64,000 nucleotides of DNA from IMG/VR virus record IMGVR_UViG_3300045988_090162; one strand, 5' to 3'. Position numbers and translations under genes: made by a program. This DNA comes from a virus. Below are positions 1 to 52,931 of this stretch, piece after piece. A model generated the notes under the pieces. It was not told the DNA's origin. It searched no databases and saw only the letters and a program-made list of their open reading frames with translations. Each line of letters begins with the position of its first letter. Positions within the stretch are counted from its first letter, which is position 1.

Positions 1-700
1 CTTGCGTTCCTAGGCACTTTTAGCTATCGCCCGTTCTAGGGCCATTACAGGGCCGCACACGCGAAAAAAATTAACTTAGGTACCGAGCGATCCGAGCAAG
101 TGTTACCCTCGGCATTGTGAGGTACCTAACTATTATTTATGAAGATTCCGTGTTGGTTTTGTGAAAAGTCTTGACAGATCAGGAATTGTATGGTCCTCTA
201 TAATAGAGGAATACCATACAATAATACCATATTTGGGACTGCCGCCGCCGTTGCGCCTATATGGCGAAAATGTGTAGAAATGGGGCCTGCCAGCCCAGCG
301 CCCGCAAAATCCTAAAACGAAAGTCAATCATAAAATTAAATAAAAAAATCCCTCCCCGCCCTATATGGCGAGAAGGGACAGAACTAGCACCTACCAAGAG
401 AGCATTCTAAAATGAATTTTAATCGTTTTTGCGTACCCCTGTACGACACAAGAAAAATAAGTCTATCTCTCATGACTTCTACAGCCAATAGAAAGTGAGA
501 ATCAATCATAAAATAAGCTCACATAAACCAAGAGACAGAAGAAAAGAAGTGTGCGGCACATGCTTTTTGTAAGTGAAAATCAATGCGGAAATGTGACTAA
601 ATTAGTTACATTTAAAAAGTGTTTTTTTAATATATGTTTTTATTAAAGTGTAAATTACACTTTTCTGCCCAAAAATTTTGGCCGCATTTGAAAATTAATC

Positions 701-10204: not shown

Positions 10205-10531
10205 CTAGAAAATAGTAAGGATTTTTGATTCCTTTACCATATCACAGAAAAGCATAACTGCGAAGTTCTGAACAGGACTCTCGCCCATTACGCCTTTCTC
10301 ACCTAGATATGTGCGGCCAATCTTGCTATATGTAACATCCTTCCCGTTTTGATATTCACAATAAATATCAAAGTAGACAGGTACTTGCTTGCGGCCAACT
10401 ACTGTGAACTTGATACCATGATAATAGAACGTGCTGCGCGTCTCGCCGTTATACTCACCAACCAGCCAACCTTCATTATATGCGATAGTTTCCAAAGCTG
10501 ACAGAATGTTAGAGATAAGGTTGCAATTCAT
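10205..10531 (-). CDS. hypothetical protein
   Basis: 108-aa ORF. Confidence 0.5.
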   Translation of the reverse strand: MNCNLISNILSALETIAYNEGWLVGEYNGETRSTFYYHGIKFTVVGRKQVPVYFDIYCEYQNGKDVTYSKIGRTYLGEKGVMGESPVQNFAVMLFCDMVKESKILTIF

Positions 10532-10540
10532 TAAATCTCC

Positions 10541-10861
10541 TTAGAGCTTGCGACCACAGAAGGGACAATACTCAATCTCATGCGACCAACCGAGCTTATC
10601 AACGCCTTTATCGTAATACTCGCCCATAAGATAATAGGCTTTGTCTGTATCCGAATAATGAATATACATACCAACATCAGAATCGGCATTATCATAATCA
10701 GTACAGTCAATGCTCTCGCCCCAGCGGGTATTCATCTTGAAATTACAATACTTGCACATACAATCTCCTTTAAAGATAATAAACATCTTCACGCTTGGCA
10801 GTATGGAATATTCCGTCTTCATCAACGATAACAAGGCTATCGCAGAATAAAAGAACATCAA
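10541..10861 (-). CDS. zinc-ribbon protein (CKYC...CPFCGRKL)
   Basis: Paralogue of 6722..6934 (same terminal CGRKL). Confidence 0.5.
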   Translation of the reverse strand: MMFFYSAIALLSLMKTEYSILPSVKMFIIFKGDCMCKYCNFKMNTRWGESIDCTDYDNADSDVGMYIHYSDTDKAYYLMGEYYDKGVDKLGWSHEIEYCPFCGRKL

Positions 10862-10985
10862 TGACTACGCCATATACATCGCCGTACAAAGCCTTGTAGA
10901 GAACCTTAGAGCCAATCATGTAATTCCCTTTCCTTCTTGGTCTATATATATTATATAATAATATATAGCGAAATGCAAGAACTTT

Positions 10986-11309
10986 TTAATGCGGCATCAG
11001 AAGATGTACAAAAGCGCCATAAGGCGATACAATCCAAGGAATCATAGTTGCAAGTTTTACCACTAAAATGACTGCGGTAAATGCACTGATACAATAGCAG
11101 ATAAAGCCTACCATTTCAAAAGTTTCATATTTATCCCTCATATCGCTGCGCTGATACTTAGTTAGTTTTTCTTGTTCCCAATTAGCATATTCCTTGCTTT
11201 TAGCTATGAAAAATCGAGCCAAGACCAAAAGAGCAATAGTAATGGCAGCAAAAATAATAACTCTACTAACATGCGCCGCAATAGCATATGAAGCGTATGC
11301 GGGAATCAC
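10986..11309 (-). CDS. membrane protein
   Basis: 107 aa with three hydrophobic segments. Confidence 0.45.
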   Translation of the reverse strand: MIPAYASYAIAAHVSRVIIFAAITIALLVLARFFIAKSKEYANWEQEKLTKYQRSDMRDKYETFEMVGFICYCISAFTAVILVVKLATMIPWIVSPYGAFVHLLMPH

Positions 11310-14388: not shown

Positions 14389-14459
14389 AGCGGCGTAAGA
14401 GATTCTAACTCTCACCAAAGGCTTGGAAGGCCTGTATGCTAACATTACACCAACGCCGC
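14389..14459 (-). tRNA. tRNA-Gly (anticodon TCC)
   Basis: acceptor GCGGCGT/ACGCCGC, anticodon loop CTTCCAA, T-arm GAGAG-TTAGAAT-CTCTT; anticodon stem is only 4 bp. Confidence 0.6.
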
Positions 14460-14467
14460 ATATAAGG

Positions 14468-14540
14468 TGTCCACGGGTAGAATTGAACTACCGACACGCA
14501 GATTTTCAGTCTGCTGCTCTACCTACTGAGCTACATGGAC
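14468..14540 (-). tRNA. tRNA-Phe (anticodon GAA)
   Basis: acceptor GTCCATG/CGTGGAC, D-arm GCTC-AGTAGGTA-GAGC, anticodon stem GCAGA/TCTGC with loop CTGAAAA, T-arm GGTAG-TTCAATT-CTACC. Confidence 0.8.
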
Positions 14541-14544
14541 ATGC

Positions 14545-14619
14545 TGGCTTCTCTATTATGACTCGAACATAAACTAACGGAACCAAAATCCGTTGTGCTG
14601 CCAATTACACCATAGAGAA
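14545..14619 (-). tRNA. tRNA-Gln (anticodon TTG), CCA encoded
   Basis: acceptor TTCTCTA/TAGAGAA (perfect), D-arm GTGT-AATTGGCA-GCAC, anticodon stem ACGGA/TCCGT with loop TTTTGGT, T-arm TTATG-TTCGAGT-CATAA, 3' GCCA. Confidence 0.8.
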
Positions 14620-14626
14620 ATTTTCG

Positions 14627-14698
14627 TGCGCTAGTGGAGATTCGAACTCCAATCTCAAGAACGTCACCTTGCAATTTTGCCAGTTAAACTACTAACAC
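14627..14698 (-). tRNA. tRNA-like gene with atypical anticodon arm (possible pseudo-tRNA or non-canonical tRNA)
   Basis: Good acceptor (GTGTTAG/CTAGCGC with two G·U pairs), D-arm GTTT-AACTGGCA-AAAT and T-arm TGGAG-TTCGAAT-CTCCA; the anticodon region folds only as CAAGG/TCTTG around a 6-nt loop TGACGT (or a 4-bp stem with an 8-nt loop). Confidence 0.45.
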
Positions 14699-14819
14699 AC
14701 TACTCACTAGTGGCAATTATTTTAAGGATAATTGCAAAACCTTTTAGTCTAAAGCTAGCTAGGCTTTAGAAGTTGAAAATATAGGGTTAAGCTATTTCCT
14801 ATATTTTCTATATTTTCTA

Positions 14820-14925
14820 TATATCTAGTCGAATGTAAGAACCGTATTTAACCAATTAAACTACCTCGCACTTGCCGTGCGAGAGTGGGAGTCGAACCAA
14901 CATCTGCTCTATGCTCGACTTGATA
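14820..14925 (-). ncRNA. candidate Y RNA-like (YrlA-like) ncRNA with a permuted tRNA-like module
   Basis: Downstream of promoter 14931-14959. The minus strand reads 5' GTCGAGC..., then T-arm GTTGG-TTCGACT-CCCAC, then hairpin CTCGCAC-GGCAA-GTGCGAG (acceptor-like stem closed by a loop), then a D-arm-like GTAGTTTAATTGGTTAAAT, then ...CATTCGAC pairing back to the 5' end. tRNA parts are present but in YrlA-like permuted order. Confidence 0.45.
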
Positions 14926-14930
14926 ACTAT

Positions 14931-14959
14931 ATTATATAAAACTACTTGGCATTTGTCAA
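14931..14959 (-). promoter_or_regulatory. sigma70-like promoter (TTGACA-N17-TATATAAT) driving the Y-like RNA and tRNA operon
   Basis: rc: TTGACAAATGCCAAGTAGTTTTATATAAT; about 90% identical over ~45 nt to the promoter at 20320-20348. Confidence 0.6.
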
Positions 14960-14978
14960 ATTAATTTTATAATTAAAA

Positions 14979-15054
14979 TGGTGGCTCGCCTGAGTCTCGA
15001 ACTCAGAACCGTCAGATTAAAAGTCTGCTACTCTACCAATTGAGTTAACGAGCC
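14979..15054 (-). tRNA. tRNA-Lys (anticodon TTT), CCA encoded
   Basis: acceptor GGCTCGT/GCGAGCC, D-arm ACTC-AATTGGTA-GAGT, anticodon loop CTTTTAA, T-arm CTGAG-TTCGAGA-CTCAG, 3' ACCA. Confidence 0.8.
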
Positions 15055-15071
15055 ATATGCAATCTAGCACG

Positions 15072-15144
15072 CTCTGGCGGCAGGGGTCGAACCTGCGACA
15101 TCTTGATTAACGGTCAAGCGTTCTACCAGCTGAACTACACCAGA
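15072..15144 (-). tRNA. tRNA-Asn (anticodon GTT)
   Basis: acceptor TCTGGTG/CGCCAGA, D-arm GTTC-AGCTGGTA-GAAC, anticodon stem CTTGA/TCAAG with loop CCGTTAA, T-arm GCAGG-TTCGACC-CCTGC. Confidence 0.7.
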
Positions 15145-15208
15145 GTGTACTAGATTATAGGTTAATTATACAATATTTATATGCAATTGTCAAGGAAAAA
15201 GTTAGAGG

Positions 15209-15280
15209 TACGAAATGAAAGAGTCGAACTTTCGTCTTCCCGTTATAAGCAGGATGTCCTAACCGTTGTACGAATTTCGC
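15209..15280 (-). tRNA. tRNA-Ile (anticodon TAT; AUA-decoding, or CAT-like if modified)
   Basis: acceptor GCGAAAT/ATTTCGT, anticodon stem TCCTG/CGGGA with loop CTTATAA, T-arm GAAAG-TTCGACT-CTTTC; D-stem has one mismatch. Confidence 0.6.
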
Positions 15281-15301
15281 ATTACTGTAACTGCTTTTAA
15301 A

Positions 15302-15673
15302 TTATTGGTGAGACTTAAGCCACCTTTGAACATACCAAAGCTGGCCGCGCCCACCACCAATATCATCTTGACCAGCTGGATCAAATGTCCTTACATTATA
15401 ACCCTTTTCTAAGAACTTATCCTGAAACTTCTTAATAACATCTAAGTTCCTAAACGCCGCATCTTTAAGCATGGCGGGAATACCGTCAAACAGCTCATGC
15501 TCACCAAGAGTCTCTAAAGCAACATCAACCAAGTCGGCATCATACATGTCATAAAGCAGGTCAAGATATGCGTCACGGTCAGATTCACTAATCTCCATTG
15601 TATTCCTCTTCGTCATACTCGCCATCATTGCACATCCAATCATTGACGCATACCTTTTCAGGTTCATCTTCAA
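15302..15673 (-). CDS. hypothetical protein
   Basis: 123-aa ORF with the CCAAGAGA cassette upstream (15770). Confidence 0.5.
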   Translation of the reverse strand: MKMNLKRYASMIGCAMMASMTKRNTMEISESDRDAYLDLLYDMYDADLVDVALETLGEHELFDGIPAMLKDAAFRNLDVIKKFQDKFLEKGYNVRTFDPAGQDDIGGGRGQLWYVQRWLKSHQ

Positions 15674-15829
15674 TCAGATGCTTGCGGCAGATGCCTAGAT
15701 ACCAAAGGTCTGTTGACTCATAATATTTGCAATTGCCGCATATATTAGTAGCTTCAACCATTGTTTCTTCTTTCTCTTGGTTTCTTTAACTATATTATAG
15801 CATATCTTTTAACCAAAAGTCAAGAAAAA

Positions 15830-16102
15830 TTAAGTATAAAATTCGTTGAAATCATTAAGCCAATCCAAGAGAGCTAAAGATGTAAGTGGAGTCATGTCCC
15901 ATAACTGCTCAGCACAATAAATGCTAGTATGAGAAGGATTCTTTTCCATAGCATTTACAACAAGCTCATGAAAAACAGCACGGTCAACTTTTTTAAGTTC
16001 ATCGACAATCTTCTCAATATCCTTTTGCTGACTAAGATATACAATGAAATCAAGAATCATAGCAGTCATTTTATTAAGGTGCATACTACACATTTCACTC
16101 AT
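15830..16102 (-). CDS. hypothetical protein (start trimmed to an internal Met)
   Basis: ORF 15830..16207 overlaps the upstream gene; the internal MSEMCSMH start abuts the upstream stop. Confidence 0.4.
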   Translation of the reverse strand: MSEMCSMHLNKMTAMILDFIVYLSQQKDIEKIVDELKKVDRAVFHELVVNAMEKNPSHTSIYCAEQLWDMTPLTSLALLDWLNDFNEFYT

Positions 16103-16397
16103 ATTTCTGTCTCCAAAGTTCACGTGCGGCCATTCGTGCTTCACGACATTCAGGAGAAGAATCATTCTTCCCTGTTTGCTGTAAAACATACTCTTCAATA
16201 AAATCATAACTACTTATATCAGCGACATTTTTTACAAACTGAGGACAGCATGTAGGCCACCAAGCTCCAATACGGCCAATTCTATAAAAGCAAGAGCCAA
16301 ACTTCTCATGGCGTTTACCTTTTGAAGTAACATCGCCTAACCAGTGAACGCACTCACCGCATGTATGGTCAGAGTTTACATCACAAAAAGGAAACAA
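16095..16397 (-). CDS. Cys-rich small protein
   Basis: 100 aa with CxxC pairs (CGEC...CCPQ). Confidence 0.45.
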   Translation of the reverse strand: MFPFCDVNSDHTCGECVHWLGDVTSKGKRHEKFGSCFYRIGRIGAWWPTCCPQFVKNVADISSYDFIEEYVLQQTGKNDSSPECREARMAARELWRQKYE

Positions 16398-16537
16398 GAC
16401 TCGCCGATAGTATCATGGAGCTGGTCTTTGCAGACACAATGAAAGTAACCTTTCTCGCCCCAACGCTTCTTGCTATACTTATGCTGCGGACAATGGCTTA
16501 GACCTTCACATGAGATTTTATATTCATCGTTAGTCAT
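16376..16537 (-). CDS. Cys/His-rich small protein (start trimmed)
   Basis: The internal Met gives a 53-aa CxxxxC...HC..C protein abutting its neighbours. Confidence 0.35.
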   Translation of the reverse strand: MTNDEYKISCEGLSHCPQHKYSKKRWGEKGYFHCVCKDQLHDTIGESCFLFVM

Positions 16538-16724
16538 GCTTCTCCAATTTAGGATGAATTGCCCATTCGCCGCACCTATCTCCGCTTTGCGGTGAAGGAT
16601 GAACAGTATAAACATTATAATCTGTTGGGTCAATAATTACATTGGGTGGGAAACGATAGCAACTGCAATTTTTATAAAATCTGCAATTGCCGCAGATACG
16701 CTGGACCTTATGCTTGACTTCCAT
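16530..16724 (-). CDS. Cys-rich small protein (start trimmed; GGAGAG RBS)
   Basis: Internal MEVKHKVQRICGNCRFYKNCSC start with RBS GGAGAGTAAAATG, immediately upstream of the phosphoesterase. Confidence 0.4.
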   Translation of the reverse strand: MEVKHKVQRICGNCRFYKNCSCYRFPPNVIIDPTDYNVYTVHPSPQSGDRCGEWAIHPKLEKHD

Positions 16725-16725
16725 T

Positions 16726-17322
16726 TTACTCTCCAAGCTCAATCTTTTTCTGCTGGACATCGAGCCAAATATCATGAATGCTGACAGGAGTAAGATTATT
16801 CGTGTCAACGCCTACGTGATATGTCCAATCAACAAGACCCTTGGGAGCCGCGTCATGGACATGACCATACAGAATGACATTGGCGCTGTCTCCACGCATT
16901 TCCTCGGGACGCTCATGAATCATAATGAAACTGACATCGTTGTAATCAAGGCAAGACACCTTGTTTTCGATAATCCAGCCGAGCTTTTCCATTTCTGCAA
17001 TGCGCTTCTTGGTATCATGATTGCCGGGAATCACATGAATCTTGCCGTTGAGACGAGAGCCATATTTAGCTACAGTCTCAAGTGGTCCCATGAAGCAATC
17101 ACCAAGATGATAGACAGTATCATCAGGAGATACAACGGAATTCCAGTTTTTGACAATAGCTTCATTCATTTCTTTGACCGTATCAAACGGACGCGACTCT
17201 GGACAAAACTTGATAATATTCTCATGTTGAAAATGAGTATCAGAAATAACAAAAACACTCATTGAATCTCCTTTCGATTTCTTAAATATATTATAACATA
17301 ATATATAGCCAATAGTCAACAA
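16726..17322 (-). CDS. calcineurin-like metallophosphoesterase (protein/polynucleotide phosphatase-like)
   Basis: Motifs ISDTHF (GDxHG-like), GDCFMG (GDxxDRG-like), GNHD, and GHVH. Confidence 0.75.
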   Translation of the reverse strand: MLTIGYILCYNIFKKSKGDSMSVFVISDTHFQHENIIKFCPESRPFDTVKEMNEAIVKNWNSVVSPDDTVYHLGDCFMGPLETVAKYGSRLNGKIHVIPGNHDTKKRIAEMEKLGWIIENKVSCLDYNDVSFIMIHERPEEMRGDSANVILYGHVHDAAPKGLVDWTYHVGVDTNNLTPVSIHDIWLDVQQKKIELGE

Positions 17323-17358
17323 AAAAATAGGGACTCAAAAGAGTCCCTACAAAAATAT
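17322..17358. terminator. bidirectional rho-independent terminator
   Basis: AAAAAAATAGGGACTCaaaaGAGTCCCTACAAAAATA. Confidence 0.65.
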
Positions 17359-17420
17359 CAATGTGTGCGAAAAAGTTAGATTCAGACTATTTTAATTGCC
17401 CTATGAAGTAACTGAATCTT
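17347..17420. repeat. hairpin-repeat unit 1 (ATGCG...TTAGATTCAG...CTGAATCTTAA...CGCAT family)
   Basis: Outer inverted ends TGCG/CGCA enclose an inner inverted repeat TTAGATTCAG / CTGAATCTTAA. Confidence 0.5.
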
Positions 17421-17699
17421 AATCACGCACATTTGCGCCTATATAGCTCGCACACTATATAGGCGAGAAAGGGGTTTACAAATAATGGCAAGGAAAAAGT
17501 GTAAAGAGTGTAGGTGGGGGTTGCCTCTTTCTAATGAAAGCTGCTCTTATTTAAACATATAACGAAGTAACTCTTTACTAATCACTTGCCGCACAAGAGA
17601 AAGCGATACGGAAATAGGTGTTTCAGTTTGAGTAATCAGCTCAGAATGGAGATTTGAAGTATCTGAAACGTTATCACGTATCGTCTACTTTAATAAAAT

Positions 17700-17810
17700 G
17701 AATGCGGAAAAGCCTAAATCAGTGAAATGTGTACCGACACAGAGCAGGAGCCGAACCTGCAAGCGCATTTTTCCAGAATGAAGTAACTGATTTATCATCA
17801 CGCATTATAG
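17700..17810. repeat. hairpin-repeat unit 2 (covariant stem CCTAAATCAGT / ACTGATTTATCA)
   Basis: Same outer ATGCGGAAAAG ... TCACGCAT frame as the other units, with compensatory changes in the inner stem. Confidence 0.5.
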
Positions 17811-17819
17811 TAAATAAAA

Positions 17820-17905
17820 TAAATGCGGAAAAGTTAGATTCAGTGTCTAATTATTAACATACCAAAATTAATGAAGTAACTGAATCTTAATCACGCATTT
17901 AATAA
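17820..17905. repeat. hairpin-repeat unit 3
   Basis: AATGCGGAAAAGTTAGATTCAG...GAAGTAACTGAATCTTAATCACGCAT. Confidence 0.5.
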
Positions 17906-17956
17906 ACGTTGGTGCCGCATCTAGGTACCGCCCCTAGCCAGTCTAAGACAGAAGAT

Positions 17957-18322
17957 TTACAAGTGTACGATATACTGATATGTATCAAAATATCCACTGT
18001 GGCACTCAGTTATATCAGAATATAACTTTATATGGGATTTATTCGTAATTTTGTTTACTGGTATAGAATACATTAAACCAGTTGTACCATTTAAACAAAA
18101 TAATAAATCTACAGGATGGTTTGTTACATTATCATATTCTTTTCCATTAGTGCCACCACAACTTCTTAAAGATATAGTATTATCTTTTGACGTTGTACAT
18201 TTGCATTGTACAGTTTGAAAGACGCCATCTTTTTCAATAATTAAATCATACCACTGTGTATCAGACAAAGGAAGAGAGACAGTATAGCCATTAGAACCAT
18301 AATATGCAATAGCCACTGACAT
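17957..18322 (-). CDS. hypothetical protein
   Basis: 121-aa ORF. Confidence 0.5.
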   Translation of the reverse strand: MSVAIAYYGSNGYTVSLPLSDTQWYDLIIEKDGVFQTVQCKCTTSKDNTISLRSCGGTNGKEYDNVTNHPVDLLFCLNGTTGLMYSIPVNKITNKSHIKLYSDITECHSGYFDTYQYIVHL

Positions 18323-18384
18323 TCCAGCCCTACTTCTATTTTTATTATTGTCTAATAGCCTTTTCCTCCTTTATGCTTCTAGTA

Positions 18385-18482
18385 TGCCTTGTCTTGGGTT
18401 CGGGAGTCGGACCCGAATGCCTTGCGGCGCTATTTTTTGAGAATAGTGTGTATGCCAGTTCCACCAACCCAAGATAAGGCAT
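18385..18482. repeat. long inverted repeat (18-bp arms) enclosing a GC-rich hairpin
   Basis: GTATGCCTTGTCTTGGGT ... ACCCAAGATAAGGCATAC, with inner hairpin TTCGGGAGTCGGACCCGAA. Confidence 0.55.
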
Positions 18483-18494
18483 ACTAACATGCCT

Positions 18495-18947
18495 TTAATT
18501 TGTCTGTTTCTGAATCCCAAGCTGGTCAAAAAACTCGTCTGGAATAAACTTGTCATCCAAAGGCTGATAATCTTTCCAGATAATCAGAGGATACCAAGTC
18601 TTTGACCACTCGGTAAATTCAGCGAATTCATCATTATATCCAAAAGAAACAGCAAAACCAAACCAGCTTGGTTTGACATGCGGGAAAGTCTTTTTGATAA
18701 TTCCCTCGTTGTCAACAAAATCGCCGATACGACCGCAAATAGTACAAACGTTCCTATAAGCATAAGTCCATGTGCCAGCATATTTATCAAAGTAATTGAT
18801 AACAATACTCTTATCGTAAGTGTGTTTATGATTGGCTTTCTTCACTGTCTTTTTCTTTTTACGAGCGGGAGCATTGGCCGCATCGTCGGGAATATAAGCA
18901 TATTTAGTTGCCAATACTTCACCTTTATAGGAATACGAGGACATCAA
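18495..18947 (-). CDS. hypothetical protein
   Basis: 150-aa ORF with a KKKK stretch. Confidence 0.5.
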   Translation of the reverse strand: MMSSYSYKGEVLATKYAYIPDDAANAPARKKKKTVKKANHKHTYDKSIVINYFDKYAGTWTYAYRNVCTICGRIGDFVDNEGIIKKTFPHVKPSWFGFAVSFGYNDEFAEFTEWSKTWYPLIIWKDYQPLDDKFIPDEFFDQLGIQKQTN

Positions 18948-18992
18948 AGCTCCTTTTCTACTTTTGGATAAACTGAGTAGCTATCTACTCTG

Positions 18993-19064
18993 CTGGAATG
19001 GTAGGACTCGAACCTACAACATTTTGATTAACGGTTAAACGCTCTACCATTGAGCTACACTCCA
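18993..19064 (-). tRNA. tRNA, anticodon GTT (Asn-like); anticodon stem carries an A·C mismatch
   Basis: acceptor TGGAGTG/CATTCCA, D-arm GCTC-AATGGTA-GAGC, anticodon loop CCGTTAA, T-arm GTAGG-TTCGAGT-CCTAC. Confidence 0.55.
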
Positions 19065-19093
19065 GCAGGGTAGATAAGCCACACTTTGTTCTA

Positions 19094-19162
19094 TTGGAGT
19101 GACAAGACTCGAACTTGCGACACGTTGAGTTAACAACATTCTACCAACTGAATTACACTCCA
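19094..19162 (-). tRNA. tRNA-like gene (69 nt) with atypical anticodon arm (6-nt loop TTAACT)
   Basis: acceptor TGGAGTG/CACTCCA, D-arm ATTC-AGTTGGTA-GAAT and T-arm GCAAG-TTCGAGT-CTTGT are fine; the anticodon region folds only as TGTTG/CAACG around TTAACT. Confidence 0.4.
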
Positions 19163-19384
19163 ATAGAATGGATTATTTAGATAAAAGAGCGTTATGAAGA
19201 TAATCGTCAGCTTCTTCAAACGTATCAAAGCTCTTGATAATTTCAAAACGAACAACAGAGCAATCAGTGTTGACACGAATCGAATAGATTCCGCAAGTCT
19301 TTTCACGACAAATGACGAACTGCTTCATAACAAACCTCTTTCTCTCTTGGTCTATATATATTATATAATATTATAAACCAAAAG

Positions 19385-19495
19385 TCAAGAAAAAATATGC
19401 GGAAAAATTGGGGTCAGACTAACAAATGCAGCGTACCGCATTTAAAATATACCATAAAATCTTCATGAAGTAACTGAACCCTCATCACGCATAAT
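19385..19495. repeat. hairpin-repeat unit 4 (covariant stem TTGGGGTCAG / CTGAACCCTCA)
   Basis: ATGCGGAAAAATTGGGGTCAG ... GAAGTAACTGAACCCTCATCACGCAT. Confidence 0.45.
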
Positions 19496-19502
19496 AAATA
19501 AA

Positions 19503-19691
19503 TTAGCTAAGAAAGAATGACACCCTGCTTTGCCTTGTTAATCTTGCGGCGAAGTTTGCGCATGATGCCGACATTCTCTGAGTTCTTACCTTTGCGATTG
19601 ATAAGCATCTGATAACGCTGCTCCATCGTCTCGATTGACTGTGCCATACTTCCTTACCTTTCTCTTGGTTTACTACACTAGAAGAAAACAA
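19503..19691 (-). CDS. small basic protein (Arg/Lys-rich)
   Basis: 62 aa, MAQSIETMEQRYQ...RKLRRKINKAKQG; preceded by a ~130-nt leader ending in CCAAGAGAAAGG, with promoter TTGACA-N17-GATATAAT at ~19805-19835. Confidence 0.45.
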   Translation of the reverse strand: MFSSSVVNQEKGKEVWHSQSRRWSSVIRCLSIAKVRTQRMSASCANFAARLTRQSRVSFFLS

Positions 19692-20224
19692 ATGGTCAAC
19701 CTAACGGCGTACTAAGCATTACACTTCTGGGTGTTGGCAATAAGCCGCAGGGTCACTGGTTTGTTGACGGTACTGTTGACTATCCTTTTTCCCTTTCCTT
19801 CTAGAAATATTATATCAAATTATTCAACTATTTGTCAAATAATTTTTTATAGCAAAAATTGGTCGCGAGGTGTTTCTGCTGCCGAAACTTAACAGAGCTT
19901 ATGAGACTCCGTGAGATACTGACCTCCCACCCGCAATTAAAGTAGTAATTTTCACATCTGCCGAGGTTTGAAAACTACCAAAATATACCAGATTCCTCTT
20001 CCCCTAGGCGCTTCTTTTCAAGTATGCGCTGGCCCGCATTGTCTACGGCTACAGAGACGGCATATATAAAATCTTGCAAGCAAGATAATATAATCACGTG
20101 GACGGTTTCAAACTGGGAAAACCGCCAACCCTTTAATCTATAGTCCCTGCAAAAGACTATAGAAGTCGGGAGACATTTACCTTGCAGCGATAACCTCTCC
20201 CCAGGCATTGGATATAACACAATC

Positions 20225-20305
20225 GCTAGGTGCTATTCTCACCAATTAAACTAACCGCCGTTAACTCGGCCTGTCCGGGAGTCGAACCCACATCTTCACC
20301 ATCAC
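20225..20305 (-). ncRNA. candidate Y RNA-like ncRNA, paralogue of 14820..14925 (may extend 3'-ward to ~19850)
   Basis: Begins just downstream of promoter 20320-20348. The minus strand reads GATGTGGGTTCGACTCCCGG (T-arm-like), then ACAG-GCCG-AGTTAA-CGGC (hairpin), then GGTTAGTTTAATTGGTGAG (D-arm-like). Same module order and near-identical promoter/5' leader as the 14.9 kb element. Confidence 0.4.
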
Positions 20306-20319
20306 GATTTGTTAACTAT

Positions 20320-20348
20320 ATTATATAAAATTACTCGGCGTTTGTCAA
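20320..20348 (-). promoter_or_regulatory. sigma70-like promoter (TTGACA-N17-TATATAAT), paralogue of 14931-14959
   Basis: rc: TTGACAAACGCCGAGTAATTTTATATAAT. Confidence 0.6.
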
Positions 20349-20437
20349 GTAATTTTTTAACTAGGCTGGCTCTTTCTGTGCTGCCCAGAAATTTTATGAT
20401 TCAGAGTCATATGTTCTACTGTTGAACTAAGAGCCAA

Positions 20438-20513
20438 TGGTCTGCTCAGCTCGACTTGAACGAGCAACCCCAAGTTCCCAAAACTTGAGCGCTACCAATT
20501 GCGCTATGAGCAG
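20438..20513 (-). tRNA. tRNA-Pro (anticodon TGG), CCA encoded
   Basis: acceptor CTGCTCA/TGAGCAG (perfect), D-arm GCGC-AATTGGTA-GCGC, anticodon stem CAAGT/ACTTG with loop TTTGGGA, T-arm GCTCG-TTCAAGT-CGAGC, 3' ACCA. Confidence 0.8.
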
Positions 20514-20675
20514 AAAATGGACAAATTTATATAGCGACTGCCCAAACCGCTAAATTGACTTGGGATAAGCACAGACGAATTCAAAGTTCGCTCTACTTAT
20601 CACTTAGAGAGTGTCTAAGATTAGCACTCTATTTTAACAATATAATACATATATTGTTAAAATACAACACTAATT

Positions 20676-21314
20676 TTATATATACACCCAATGAAAACCA
20701 TATGCCGTCTTTTCTTTATTTTCACAAACTTGCTTAATATGCCTTGAAATTCCTTGTGTTGATTTATTTGTAGTGTAGTTATTATCAAAAAGCCAAGCGG
20801 ATGCTTCGTGCAACGATTGAAAAATCTTGTCTTTTTCTATTAAACATACACTTTTAGAATATCGTTCTTTAGAAAGAACATTAGATTGCAGTATTTCTAC
20901 ATTGCATTGTTTACATGCGTACCTAACCGTATCTGCACAACAATGAAAATGTTTTACTACTTTTATCGTATCATGTGTTTCAGTATGCATATCAGCTATT
21001 TTTTGATAATCATAAAAAGGTTTTCCGTCTCCACCTTTTGTAGCATTATATCCATTACAGCCATATGTATTTAGCTTAAAAATCCAATATTCTTCCTGTT
21101 TTGCCGCATCTTCAACGGAGCATTTTTCTAATTGCTCAACATGAAAATGCTCAATGCCATATTTATTCATAGCAGAATACAGAGGACGTTTTTCACATCT
21201 TTCTTTTCTGCTATCTGAAATATGCTCTTTAAATCTTTTGCTGATTGACTTATTAGTTTTTCCAACATATTGTTTTCCGTTAACATCGTTGGTAATTACA
21301 TAAATATAAGACAT
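20676..21314 (-). CDS. GIY-YIG homing endonuclease (free-standing)
   Basis: N-terminal SYIYVITNDVNGKQYVGKT, RFKEH and YGIEHF (GIY-YIG core) with a C-terminal DNA-binding extension. Confidence 0.75.
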   Translation of the reverse strand: MSYIYVITNDVNGKQYVGKTNKSISKRFKEHISDSRKERCEKRPLYSAMNKYGIEHFHVEQLEKCSVEDAAKQEEYWIFKLNTYGCNGYNATKGGDGKPFYDYQKIADMHTETHDTIKVVKHFHCCADTVRYACKQCNVEILQSNVLSKERYSKSVCLIEKDKIFQSLHEASAWLFDNNYTTNKSTQGISRHIKQVCENKEKTAYGFHWVYI

Positions 21315-21582
21315 TTTATCACCAACTTAAATAATAAATGGAGCCAACTGACAGTGCTGCCCTGTCTGCTTCGCTTTACAAGAGCGATGTATTACTGTTA
21401 TACTAAGCTGGCTTTACCAAAAGAAAAATGAGCCTGCAATACTCTAGAAATCTTGCAGGCTCTAACACCACTATTACAATATAATAGTTGCGCAACAAAA
21501 ATTATAACTTTTTGCCCAGAACTTTTATTTTGTAACTAAAGTTATTATACCATATTAGTATAACGTCTGTCAAGAACTTTTT

Positions 21583-49434: not shown

Positions 49435-49440
49435 TTCTAA

Positions 49441-49470
49441 AGACCGTCCATAATTGGGCGGTCTTTTTTA
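49441..49470 (+). terminator. rho-independent terminator
   Basis: AGACCGTCCATAATTGGGCGGTCTTTTTTA. Confidence 0.7.
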
Positions 49471-49499
49471 TTGACAAAATCTCCTGAATATGTTATAAT
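49471..49499 (+). promoter_or_regulatory. sigma70 promoter TTGACA-N17-(TG)TTATAAT
   Basis: ttgacaaaatctcctgaatatgttataat. Confidence 0.65.
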
Positions 49500-49523: not shown

Positions 49524-50042
49524 ATGGCAAAACAAAGACTTGTTAAATGTCCATATTGCGGCCAAATGATTGACCGTGATTGTGAGTTTGATTGGAACAA
49601 GATTGGCAACCGATATTGGCATGATGAATGTTATACCAAAAGCCAAGAGGAAAAAGAAAAGAATAAAGATAAGCTGAAAAAGCAACGAGAAGCAGTTATG
49701 AAAATGGCTGGAAAATATCTTGGGGTATATATAGATTATCAAAAGGTAGCCTTAAATATGGGGCAACTTATTCAAGCTGGCGTTACATATGAGCAAATGG
49801 CTAAGTCTTTAAAATATTGGTATGAGGTAAAACATAACGACCCGAGTAGGTCGAATGGCGGTATATGGATTGTCAAATCAATTTATATCGAAGCGGAAAA
49901 CTATTTCAAGCGATTGGAAGAGATTAGAACTGTACAGAGTGAAGAGCAAGTGAATACAGATATTACAGATGAACATCGTGTATTTGTGCGACCAAGAGAC
50001 GTAAATATCTATAGAAAAAAGCCACGTTTCAATTTGGAATAG
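49524..50042 (+). CDS. zinc-ribbon protein
   Basis: CPYCGQ...CEFDW...C N-terminus; 172 aa. Confidence 0.5.
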   Translation: MAKQRLVKCPYCGQMIDRDCEFDWNKIGNRYWHDECYTKSQEEKEKNKDKLKKQREAVMKMAGKYLGVYIDYQKVALNMGQLIQAGVTYEQMAKSLKYWYEVKHNDPSRSNGGIWIVKSIYIEAENYFKRLEEIRTVQSEEQVNTDITDEHRVFVRPRDVNIYRKKPRFNLE

Positions 50043-50054
50043 AAGGGAGGATAT

Positions 50055-50738
50055 TTGATTAGTAAATACTATGATTCTGTCGCGGCATTACAGGTAATTG
50101 GATGTTGTATGCGGAAACCCGAATACTTAGCAGCAGATGGACAATACTTCTTTTCAGAACACGACTTTTGCAATGATTTACATAAGGTAGTATTTGGTGC
50201 GTTATATAGTCTATATAACGCAGGTGTAACCGACCATCTTGCGCGAGAAATTGAAAATTATCTTAAAGATAAGCCAAAAGCATATGCAGTTTATAAAGCC
50301 AATAAAGGTCGAGAGTGGATGTTTGAAACTCATGCAAATGCCCACTTAGATGCTTTTGAGTATTATTATAATCGTCTAAAGAAAATGTCTCTACTTCGCG
50401 CATATGATGATGTTGGCGTAGATGTATCTGATATTTATGACCCTGATAATATCTTAGATTCTGCAAAGAAGCAAGCGCAAGACGAGTACCTTGACGGCAC
50501 GACATTAGAGCAATTAGCAGATGATGTAGAAGGTAAATTTTATTTTATCAGGGATTTATATGTAGACAATAACGATAATGACTCTGTTGCTATTGGTGAT
50601 AATGTCCAAAAGATTGTAGATGAATTAGCACAGCATCCTGCTCGTGGTTGGGCAATGTATGATTTATATGAAGATGCAATCGCTATGGGCGCACGACCTG
50701 GCCGCTTTTATCTAAGAAGTGCAGCAACAGGTGTCGGT
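50055..50738 (+). CDS. dnaB: DnaB-like replicative helicase, exon 1 (N-terminal domain to first half of Walker A)
   Basis: DnaB N-domain; ends ...GARPGRFYLRSAATGVG with the exon terminating in U (ggT) at 50738. Confidence 0.6.
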
Positions 50739-50969
50739 AGAATGATTTGCCGACAATAAACTGGGGAGAAAATCTGGAACCCTAAACCAAAAGGCAAGGG
50801 AATCAGAGGTGAAGGTTAATTTTAAATTAATCAGCCGCAACGCATAGCAGGTGAAAAGATATAATCCTGCCACGAGGCCCCAGCTTTCTTTACAAGAAAG
50901 AAAAGATATGCTGAACTTGCGGGAAACTGTAAGAGCTGTAGGATAAAAAGCCTACAGGGTAACAAATTG
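50739..50969 (+). mobile_element. candidate small ORF-less group I intron in the dnaB helicase gene
   Basis: P1: exon 3' UGUCGGU pairs with intron GCCGACA (50749-55) including a terminal U·G; intron ends in G (50969); internal hairpins CTTTCTTT-ACAA-GAAAGAAA and CTGTAGG-ataaaaag-CCTACAG; splicing yields AATGVGKSRTG (Walker A). Confidence 0.5.
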
Positions 50970-51848
50970 AAATCAAGAACTGGTGTTGCCGATGCTTGCT
51001 TCTTTTCATGTTCTGAATATTATTCAGATGAAGGTAAATGGGAGCGTTTATATAATCGAGTACCTACTTTATATATTTCGGTAGAATTAGACATTGAAGA
51101 GCTTACAACTATGGCGCTGGCTTTTATTGGTAATATTCCAGAAGACCATATCGTTGAAATGGATTTACTTACTTTTGACGAGGAAGAGAGATTAAAGAAA
51201 GCAGTACAGATTCTAGAAGAAGCGCCACTTCGTATGGAATATCTTCCTAACTATGGTATGAAAGATGTTGAGAATTGTATCAAACGCAATATGCGCAAAT
51301 ACAAATATCCACGAGTAGATGAACAAGGCAATACAGATTACCTAACTTTTCAATGTGTTGTCTTTGACTATCTAACTTCATCCATTAAGATGATTGAGGA
51401 AATCTCACATGGAACTGGAATGAAAGTACGCGAGGACCAAATTCTATTCCTTATGTCATCTAAACTTAAAGAAATAGCTGTCGAGAACAATGTCTTTCTT
51501 TTGTCAAGCACTCAAATTAATGGTAGTTATCGTCAAGAGAAAATTCTAGACCAGAACATGTTAGCTGGCGCAAAATCAATCGCAAACCGAATCGACTACG
51601 GTGAAATCATGGTCGATTGTACAGATGAAGATATTCAAGATATTGAAGGTGTTTTGGCGCAGCATCCCGGCATGTGTCCACCAAATGTAAAAAGAAGTGT
51701 ATATAAGAATCGACGAGGGAAATTCAATCGTGTTATTTGTTGGATGCGCGCGAATAAAGGCACTTGTCGATATAAGACTTTATTTGTAACTGACTTTTCT
51801 TTTAAACCAATAGACAAAGATGAAATCTTCCAAAAGAAGAAAGAATAG
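50970..51848 (+). CDS. dnaB: DnaB-like replicative helicase, exon 2 (RecA-like domain)
   Basis: KSRTG completes Walker A; H1a SVELD, Walker B VVFDYL, H3 SSTQINGS, H4 SYRQE. Confidence 0.6.
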   Translation, partial: KSRTGVADACFFSCSEYYSDEGKWERLYNRVPTLYISVELDIEELTTMALAFIGNIPEDHIVEMDLLTFDEEERLKKAVQILEEAPLRMEYLPNYGMKDVENCIKRNMRKYKYPRVDEQGNTDYLTFQCVVFDYLTSSIKMIEEISHGTGMKVREDQILFLMSSKLKEIAVENNVFLLSSTQINGSYRQEKILDQNMLAGAKSIANRIDYGEIMVDCTDEDIQDIEGVLAQHPGMCPPNVKRSVYKNRRGKFNRVICWMRANKGTCRYKTLFVTDFSFKPIDKDEIFQKKKE

Positions 51849-51851
51849 GAG

Positions 51852-52931
51852 GTGCGGGAATTGGGATACGATAAAGCAAAGGTAAAAGAATCAATTGAGC
51901 CAGAAAACGTATATGATATTCTAGAATACTTTGGCGCAGAACCAGAAATGTATTCTGATTATATTATTTCCCGCACGATTTGTCACAATGGCATTGGTGA
52001 AGGTTCAAAGAAACTATATTATTATTTTGAGAATAGCATGTTTAATTGCTATACCGAGTGCGGCGCATTTGATATTTTTGAACTTGTTGAGAAAGTTAAG
52101 AATGTAGATTTAAATTCCGCAATCTATTTCGTGGTTAATTTCTTAAATCTTCAAATTGATTTAGATAATGATATTGATTTAAAAGATAGTCAAGAAGACT
52201 GGAAAATATTCAATAGATATAAAGAGCAAAAAGATGTAAATGTCAATGATAATACCATTGAGTTGCCAGAATATGATATATCTATTATTCAGCATTATCC
52301 TCAACCTATTATTTCCTCTTGGTCTAATATCTCAAAAGAGGTGTGTGATTTTGCGCAAATTCATTATGACCCTCTTAGCGGTAATATCCTTATTCCGCAC
52401 TTCGACCAGAACGATAGGTGCGTAGGTATTCGACAGAGAACTATTATTAAAGAGCAAGAAAAAAAGGGAAAATACAAACCTTGGCGAGTCCACGGTGAAC
52501 TTTATAATCATGCTCTTGGCTTTAACTTGTATGGCCTTAATTGGGCTAAAGAAAGAATTAGAGAAATACAAACTGCGGTTGTAGCCGAATCAGAAAAGTC
52601 GGTTCTTGCCTATATGTCATATTATGGTACAGGTAATAATATTTGTGTTGCAACATGCGGTAGTTCCTTGTCTAAGTATCAGTTCAAACTTCTTAAAGAT
52701 GCAGGATGTAAAGAAATTGTTATCGCATTTGACCATGACTTTGATGAATATGGTTCAGATGAAAGTCTAAAGGTTGAAGAAAAGATTGCCAAGATTGGTA
52801 ACAAATACAAACCGTATATGAACATGTCTGTAGTTTTCGATAGAGAGAATATTCTAGGATATAAGGCAAGTCCATTAGACCAAGGTAAAGATGTATTCAT
52901 GTATCTATTTAAGAATAGGATTATGTTATAA
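51852..52931 (+). CDS. DnaG-like DNA primase (zinc finger + TOPRIM)
   Basis: CHNG...NCYTEC zinc-binding block and a TOPRIM-like core; the true start may be TTG at 51861 (RBS AGGAGGTG). Confidence 0.6.
   Translation: MRELGYDKAKVKESIEPENVYDILEYFGAEPEMYSDYIISRTICHNGIGEGSKKLYYYFENSMFNCYTECGAFDIFELVEKVKNVDLNSAIYFVVNFLNLQIDLDNDIDLKDSQEDWKIFNRYKEQKDVNVNDNTIELPEYDISIIQHYPQPIISSWSNISKEVCDFAQIHYDPLSGNILIPHFDQNDRCVGIRQRTIIKEQEKKGKYKPWRVHGELYNHALGFNLYGLNWAKERIREIQTAVVAESEKSVLAYMSYYGTGNNICVATCGSSLSKYQFKLLKDAGCKEIVIAFDHDFDEYGSDESLKVEEKIAKIGNKYKPYMNMSVVFDRENILGYKASPLDQGKDVFMYLFKNRIML

Follow-up and report, generated by a model that had tools for sequence, protein, structure and literature searches.

How a YorI/DnaB-like replicative helicase can be produced from a gene that is broken inside its Walker A motif is the question raised by IMG/VR virus record IMGVR_UViG_3300045988_090162, a stretch of 64,000 nt hereafter called the window. 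The gene lies in two open reading frames (ORFs), and 231 nt separate the Gly codon from the Lys codon of the motif. The initial annotation of this DNA had described the insert as lacking an ORF and had proposed a group I intron, with a two-piece helicase gene as the alternative. The group I reading is supported by the P1 and P10 pairings, a P3-P9 core with a pseudoknot and covariation, the terminal G, the exact junction, and similarity to the introns of phage Twort. It is considered very probable that the insert is a group I intron between the Walker A Gly and Lys codons and that it is mobile by homing, now or recently; splicing, guanosine dependence and homing are what we infer from these features.

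The ends of the insert are fixed by an empty allele. Joining T50738 to A50970 restores the frame (GGT|AAA) and gives AATGVG|KSRTG with the P-loop AATGVGKS. The predicted spliced exon junction reads ...GGUGUCGGU and then AAAUCAAGA; as search strings, GGTGTCGGT stands directly before AAATCAAGA. The joined protein has 520 amino acids and lies above the Pfam threshold for DnaB_C (E 1.1e-6). A protein collection search returned an uninterrupted 520-amino-acid protein, P0001, with 99% identity over 100% of the joined query, and alignment of ten full-length homologues shows the junction as YLRSAATGVGKSR, with G228 and K229 invariant. L001, the contig on which P0001 is encoded, is colinear with the window at the DNA level, minus exactly the 231 nt, and shares with it the genes for an AAA_24 protein, a YorH-like protein, the helicase, a Toprim primase and a RecJ-like protein. 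Exon 1 is identical to this intronless allele from -243 to -14 relative to the junction. The coordinates first given for the split hold, and the proposed junction matches the uninterrupted allele. The insert had also been said to end in G; this is G50969, which the empty allele places as the last base of the intron. The ORF list contains no ORF longer than 31 amino acids on the + strand within the insert.

The P1 helix can be read directly from the sequence as first described, with UGUCGGU at the end of exon 1 pairing with GCCGACA 11 nt into the insert and the final U of the exon opposite G. The wobble pair U50738·G50749 is a marker of the 5' splice site, and the guide corresponds to intron nucleotides 11-17. 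The P10 pairing is an addition to the features noticed earlier. Its guide half lies directly 5' of the P1 guide, and a single contiguous internal guide, GAUUU-GCCGACA, serves both helices. Among 200,000 shuffles of the insert, P1 alone was obtained 1,477 times (0.7%), and P1 together with an adjacent P10 twice. The same compact layout passed a strict search in 11 of 105 members of the intron family described below, against 1.5 expected. Because most members have a longer stretch between P1 and P3, the layout recurs without being general. Three viral contigs (L002, L016 and L123) carry family members in another host gene, in the exon context ...GGTGCATGGT|intron|GGAT(A/C)AT, and their P1 (CAUGGU/GCCAUG) and P10 stand in the same P2-less layout as in the window intron.

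A search for P3-P9, which had been suggested as a check, identified a complete core with a P3/P7 pseudoknot, covarying in 58 to 110 relatives. The helices were assigned by hand and are listed in Table 1. P7 is presumed to be the guanosine-binding helix. The minimum-free-energy fold of the 231 nt alone, calculated with ViennaRNA, contains P3, P4, P5, P6, P6a, P7.1, P8, P9 and P9.1 as assigned by hand, with z = -3.6, and 0 of 200 shuffles folded as well. P7 is not in this nested fold because it is pseudoknotted with P3. Both strong hairpins reported at the outset are real and correspond to P8 and P9.1. The family member L025 matches the whole Rfam model RF00028 with 54.2 bits (gathering score 50). 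In its Rfam alignment, P3, P4, P5, P6, J6/7-P7, P3', P8, J8/7-P7' and P9 with GAAA are equal to the hand-assigned blocks, and J8/7 with the 3' strand of P7 aligns with the AAGAUAUAGUC element of RF00028. The RF00028 consensus differs in having no P7.1 hairpin, which shows as an insertion in the L025 alignment. An alternative P4 between CCGCAA (50835-50840) and UUGCGG (50917-50922), suggested by P/Q-like sequence, was rejected because the sequence on its 3' side serves in the family as the 5' strand of P9, which is variable, and both the minimum-free-energy fold and covariation favour P9.

Table 1. Features of the helicase locus and of the predicted intron. Positions are those of the window; intron positions (i) are window coordinates minus 50738.
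Feature	Position	i	Strand	Remarks
ORF	50055..50759		+	Reads ...FYLRSAATGVG, then RMICRQ-stop (ORF list)
ORF	50967..51848		+	TTG start at 50967; begins (L)KSRTGVADACFF... (ORF list)
Exon 1, YorI/DnaB-like replicative helicase	50055..50738		+	228 codons, end ...AATGVG; from ORF list and alignment with uninterrupted homologues
Exon 2, helicase	50970..51848		+	Begins KSRTGVADAC...; 292 codons and stop
Insert, predicted group I intron	50739..50969		+	231 nt, ORF-less, subgroup IA-like (Twort-like); last base G50969 is the omega G
P1	50732..50755		+	Exon UGUCGGU (50732-50738) with guide GCCGACA (50749-50755), 7 bp; L1 loop 50739-50748
P10 guide half	50744..50748		+	GAUUU pairs with exon 2 AAAUC (50970-50974), 5 bp
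P3	50761-50766 with 50878-50883	23-28/140-145	+	CUGGGG with CCCCAG; in minimum-free-energy fold; 6/6 pairs covary
P4	50773-50777 with 50803-50807	35-39/65-69	+	Fold, covariation and Rfam alignment of L025
P5	50780-50783 with 50797-50800	42-45/59-62	+	A-rich J4/5 and J5/4; assignment as in L025
P6	50808-50810 with 50834-50836	70-72/96-98	+	3 bp; 57-58% paired in family; GC<->CG swaps
P6a	50814-50820 with 50826-50832	76-82/88-94	+	87-92% paired; 7/7 pairs covary
P7	50842-50846 with 50907-50911	104-108/169-173	+	GCAUA with UAUGC; 5' strand preceded by conserved J6/7 GCAAC
P7.1 hairpin	50847..50870	109-113/128-132	+	GCAGG/CCUGC; between P7 and P3'; 99-100% paired; 4/5 pairs covary
Conserved CACGAG	50871-50876		+	Directly 3' of P7.1
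P8 hairpin	50884..50900	146-152/156-162	+	CUUUCUU/AAGAAAG, 7 bp; 88-90% paired; 7/7 pairs covary
J8/7	50901-50906		+	AAAAGA; nearly invariant in family, with P7 3' strand UAUGC
P9 hairpin	50916..50933	178-184/189-195	+	GAAA tetraloop; P9/GAAA also in Twort I2 and RF00028 consensus
P9.1 hairpin	50936..50957	198-204/213-219	+	CUGUAGG/CCUACAG; conserved loop AUAAAAAG; 93-98% paired; 7/7 pairs covary

The insert belongs to a family of related sequences in phages. Using positions 50000-51900 as the query against 50,697 phage records, blastn gave 16 matches to the 3' half of the insert, from Staphylococcus 6ec-like phages, large Clostridioides phages and others, while no relatives of the exons were found in these records. 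A search pattern of three conserved blocks, ACGCATAG...CACGAG...TGCTGAAC, was then run on IMG/VR viral contigs and revealed at least 120 related loci. Fifty-eight non-redundant members were aligned with MAFFT, blind to structure. Standard pairs make up 87.7% of cells in this alignment, compared with 31-44% after a shift of the 3' partners by 1-3 columns; changes on both sides occur in 48 of 56 pairs, and the score for covariation is 0.64 vs at most 0.18. A covariance model, R1, was built from the family with P7 left out, and the second alignment made with it comprises 123 hits, 110 of them distinct and some missed by the pattern. In the 110 distinct copies, paired cells amount to 89.6%, and changes on both sides are seen in 50 of 55 pairs; the slid-partner control for both alignments gives 31-45%. 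P7 is 100% paired in the R1-based alignment, with CG to AU and AU to GC or CG changes.

Two close relatives, L100 and L101, occupy the same site. Most of the substitutions in their helices preserve pairing, and for this reason they argue that the structure of the intron is under selection. L100 has double compensatory changes in P9.1 (U199-A218 to C-G and G200-C217 to A-U), and GU to GC changes are observed in P9 and P6a among the close relatives. One change in L100 yields an A·C mismatch in P6a.

The size of the insert was overstated as an exceptional feature when it was placed among the smallest group I introns known. From P3 to the 3' end, ORF-less members of the family span 205-258 nt, which makes whole introns of roughly 225-280 nt, and 231 nt is typical. 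The Azoarcus tRNA-Ile intron has about 205 nt in total.

The characterized introns to which the family could be connected are those of orf142 in Staphylococcus phage Twort. R1 matches three places in this gene, with 55.4 bits (1105-1320), 44.7 bits (1383-1629) and 20.3 bits, and the e-values of the best two are about 1e-14 and 2e-11. In GenBank AF132670 the orf142 coding sequence (CDS) is a join of four segments and bears the annotation "contains group 1 introns". These introns belong to subgroup IA2, and a crystal structure of the I2 ribozyme is available as PDB 1Y0Q. R1 aligns Twort I2 through P3, P4, P5, P6, P8, P9 with the GAAA loop, P9.1 and the GUAACAnAAUUG tail. The Twort and window introns are alike in that they are compact and ORF-less, interrupt a protein-coding gene in a phage that infects Gram-positive bacteria, and have extra structure between P7 and P3'. 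They differ in host gene and insertion site, and in P7, which is GCAUA/UAUGC in the window and GACUAU/AUAGUC in Twort; the window intron has no P2 and a single hairpin, P7.1, between P7 and P3'. Blastn-level similarity of the window intron to the Twort introns was not found. P7.1 and P7.2 are among the class-defining peripheral elements of group I introns (PMC3984707). In the window intron, one covarying hairpin without a second helix is observed between P7 and P3', with a nested extension in some relatives. Such an extra hairpin is characteristic of subgroup IA, and the label "IA2-like" is an approximation.

Several observations weigh against the interpretation as an active group I intron. 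The window intron has no P2 helix, and its P6 is weak, with 3 bp that are paired in 57-58% of family cells. The support from P3 is partly circular, as members were picked for a 5-nt complement there, and P7 is invariant in the MAFFT alignment, being in the search pattern. These two caveats of selection are eased because the R1 alignment was built without P7 and holds copies missed by the pattern. The proposed check with Infernal and RF00028 had a mixed outcome. At the locus itself, no match was obtained even at E ≤ 10 with sub-regions of 901 nt and 256 nt, and a cmscan of the whole window at the gathering score, together with the sub-regions, gave only chance snoRNA and lncRNA matches and no Intron_gpI; the relative L025 did match. 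At the gathering score, L025 is the one member recognized among 12 relatives tested, the other 11 being missed. This failure is a limit of the Rfam model and does not concern a defining structural feature. Published surveys likewise report under-detection by RF00028 and the GISSD models, both for group I introns of phages and for divergent ones of bacteria (PMC11878797, PMC13011429). A further point, that selection for P1/P10 pairing could by itself account for the exon changes around the insertion site, is considered with the alleles below.

Three states of the helicase site coexist in viral contigs. The site is empty in L001. It is occupied by an ORF-less intron in the window, in L117, which has 3 exon differences from the window, and in L100 and L101, with about 5% exon divergence. 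In L125 (10380-11370, - strand) the same helicase, site and core are found with an intron of 1,090 nt, whose P1 loop contains an ORF of 257 amino acids (10502-11275) with two LAGLIDADG motifs (PF14528, E 1.2e-5). This ORF is flanked by AGAG..., which follows closely on the splice site, and by ...TGATTTGCCGACA; it ends in a stop codon immediately ahead of the TTTGCCGACA guide. An endonuclease gene and alleles with and without the intron are both present at the site, as in homing introns; the window copy itself carries no ORF. The endonuclease at this site is of the LAGLIDADG type, whereas T-even phage introns mostly encode GIY-YIG or HNH enzymes.

The exons next to the insertion site also differ from the empty allele in a clustered manner. 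The helicase gene of the window differs from that of L001 at 45 of 1,563 positions, and 16 of the 45 fall within -13 to +47, while the 230 nt directly upstream of this cluster are identical. Three of the 45 differences change an amino acid, none of them within the cluster. Across the site, L001 reads GCC ACG GGC GTG GGC AAA AGC CGC, and the joined exons of the window read GCA ACA GGT GTC GGT AAA TCA AGA. The changes at -10, -7, -4, -1, +3 to +8 and +23 are common to all five intron-bearing alleles, whatever their background, while between +20 and +47 the window and L117 stand apart from L100, L101 and L125. Clustered changes of this kind are what co-conversion tracts of different lengths would leave, and co-conversion is part of homing (PMC3984707). 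They could instead reflect selection for P1/P10 pairing, without co-conversion, and the empty allele L001 might equally be an endonuclease-resistant variant. Because three states coexist and synonymous exon changes cluster at the site, the alleles point to homing. The mobile group I introns of phages likewise insert at codons for functionally critical residues, carry an endonuclease ORF in a peripheral loop, as in L125, and show empty, ORF-less and ORF-bearing alleles with clustered changes in the flanking exons (PMC3984707); homing at the present site is putative.

Other explanations of the insert were weighed against the same data. It is extremely unlikely that the helicase is made in two pieces, with the halves translated separately, the second from TTG 50967, and assembled non-covalently across an intergenic spacer. 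The ORF at 50967-51848 does begin with TTG and has a weak purine run, AGGG, 7-10 nt upstream, but this run belongs to the 3' strand of P9.1 and the tail, two segments that stay conserved in family members from unrelated host genes, whereas real genes nearby use AAGGGAGG or AGGAGG. The spacer moreover has a conserved, covarying group I fold and no promoter-like or terminator-like site inside it. The break lies between the invariant G and K of GxxxxGK[ST] and leaves neither half with a P-loop, and an allele with 99% identity is uninterrupted; the two-piece gene offered earlier as the alternative is thus not supported. Translational bypassing as in T4 gene 60, an intein or a group II intron can be regarded as negligible possibilities. 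The position within a conserved motif is one that inteins also choose, and homologues have an intein 3 nt away, but the frame stops six codons into the insert, which has no long ORF or Hint domain. For bypassing, the take-off codon GGU does not match UUG, the codon before the landing site, and 231 nt far exceeds the gap of 50 nt in gene 60. The group II intron models gave no match at the locus in the Rfam searches, and the insert is too small for such an intron.

A decayed remnant that no longer splices, with the helicase gene being a pseudogene or helper-dependent, is very unlikely as well. It would agree with the missing endonuclease ORF and with the absence of a score from the Rfam model, but all core helices are intact, P1 and P10 are perfect, and the window intron scores 199.5 bits against the family model, the second highest of 123 hits, though it is among the sequences from which the model was built. 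Near-identical copies stand in the same gene on at least 3 other contigs, with most helix substitutions keeping the pairing, and both exon frames are open with only 3 amino-acid differences from the empty allele.

If the insert is a functional group I intron, the course of events can be proposed by analogy with characterized group I introns. The helicase would be transcribed as one pre-mRNA, in which the guide GAUUU-GCCGACA would pair at the outset with the end of exon 1, forming P1 with U·G at the cleavage site. An external guanosine bound in P7 would attack after U50738. The guide would then align exon 2 through P10, G50969 would enter the G site, and the exons would be ligated. The product would be an mRNA for the 520-amino-acid helicase with an intact AATGVGKS P-loop. 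Unspliced RNA would give only an N-terminal fragment of 234 amino acids, because translation would run six codons into the intron and meet a stop. The window copy is the ORF-less form of an intron that would be, or recently have been, mobile by endonuclease-mediated homing.

A second type of mobile element is found next to the intron site in homologous helicases. The proteins P0043 and P0037 (737-741 amino acids) and P0050 (873 amino acids) contain an intein at GVGK|AIPNDT...FIVTHN|TRN, between K and T of Walker A. This site corresponds to window positions 50970-50975 and is offset from the intron position at G|K by one codon (3 nt) in the downstream direction. The intein of P0050 includes Hom_end and LAGLIDADG_3 domains, while no endonuclease was detectable with Pfam in the intein of the 741-amino-acid form. 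The intein starts with Ala and has ...DMTCFTV... and ...VTHN|T; by this start and these motifs it is a candidate for class 3. A common lineage of the LAGLIDADG enzymes of the L125 intron and the P0050 intein was considered and rejected, as BLASTP found no significant similarity (best E 0.56). The P-loop is known as the intein insertion point b of DnaB (PMC4760082). DnaB inteins at point b share the motif and the protein family with the window intron, and differ in being removed at the protein level, while the intron would be removed at the RNA level. The Walker A codons of this helicase family appear to be a shared target of two unrelated selfish elements, a LAGLIDADG intron at G|K and a LAGLIDADG intein at K|T. 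If this is true, they offer a natural setting for competition, or mutual exclusion, between an intron and an intein over overlapping homing sites.

The insert is a genuine example of a kind already well known in phages, here a compact group I intron that interrupts a conserved catalytic motif, and the knowledge of how group I introns work is unchanged by it. A literature search found no published group I intron in the P-loop of a phage DnaB/YorI helicase, which is no proof of absence. For annotation, the two ORFs are to be merged into one replicative helicase of 520 amino acids, where a gene caller gives two fragments without a P-loop. Modest extra interest lies in the failure of the Rfam model on an abundant family, the three-state homing site, and the nearby intein in homologues; the three states together with the intein 3 nt away in relatives form a natural series that lends itself to studies of the homing cycle and of how introns and inteins target P-loops. 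Only tentatively can it be proposed that the family is a large phage subclass of subgroup IA without formal description, comprising at least 120 IMG/VR loci, often with 2-4 copies within a few kb, compact, P2-less in at least some members including that of the window, largely invisible to RF00028, and with Walker A as a target shared by introns and inteins.

ORF-less introns of this abundant phage family are likely to be unannotated, for example in Staphylococcus phage 6ec and phage PT1-1, because the Rfam model misses the window copy and 11 of the 12 relatives tested. The family model matches 6ec (L005, KJ804259) at 437-670 with 132 bits and PT1-1 (L004) at 422-669 with 101 bits. Both matches lie between an ORF annotated as "HNH endonuclease domain protein" or hypothetical and the "tapemeasure" CDS, and the tape-measure genes of these phages probably have an unannotated group I intron inside. 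Two to four family copies within a few kb were seen on each of the single IMG/VR contigs L006, L007, L050, L066, L079 and L091, and because of this density some phage genomes are regarded as heavily colonized by the family. Within the window, positions 525-637 (+ strand) were examined as a second intron and rejected, since the match has 21 bits (E about 1e-4 to 1e-5) and the central 113 model positions are deleted. These intergenic hairpins are probably not an intron but a chance match or a remnant.

The helicases of sequenced phages that come closest to that of the window belong to Enterococcus, Bacillus SPbeta-like and Staphylococcus phages and share only about 33% identity with it, and the window is therefore assigned, on this comparison, to an uncharacterized phage lineage with an SPbeta-like replication module. 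At 49439-49499 (+ strand), a perfect TTGACA-17-TATAAT promoter extended by TG lies directly downstream of a terminator-like hairpin of 12 bp and precedes the YorH-like ORF (49524) and the helicase; this is probably the start of the replication operon. Elsewhere in the window, twelve tRNA genes lie on the - strand at 14389-21412, in three clusters (14389-15280, 18993-19162 and 20366-21412).

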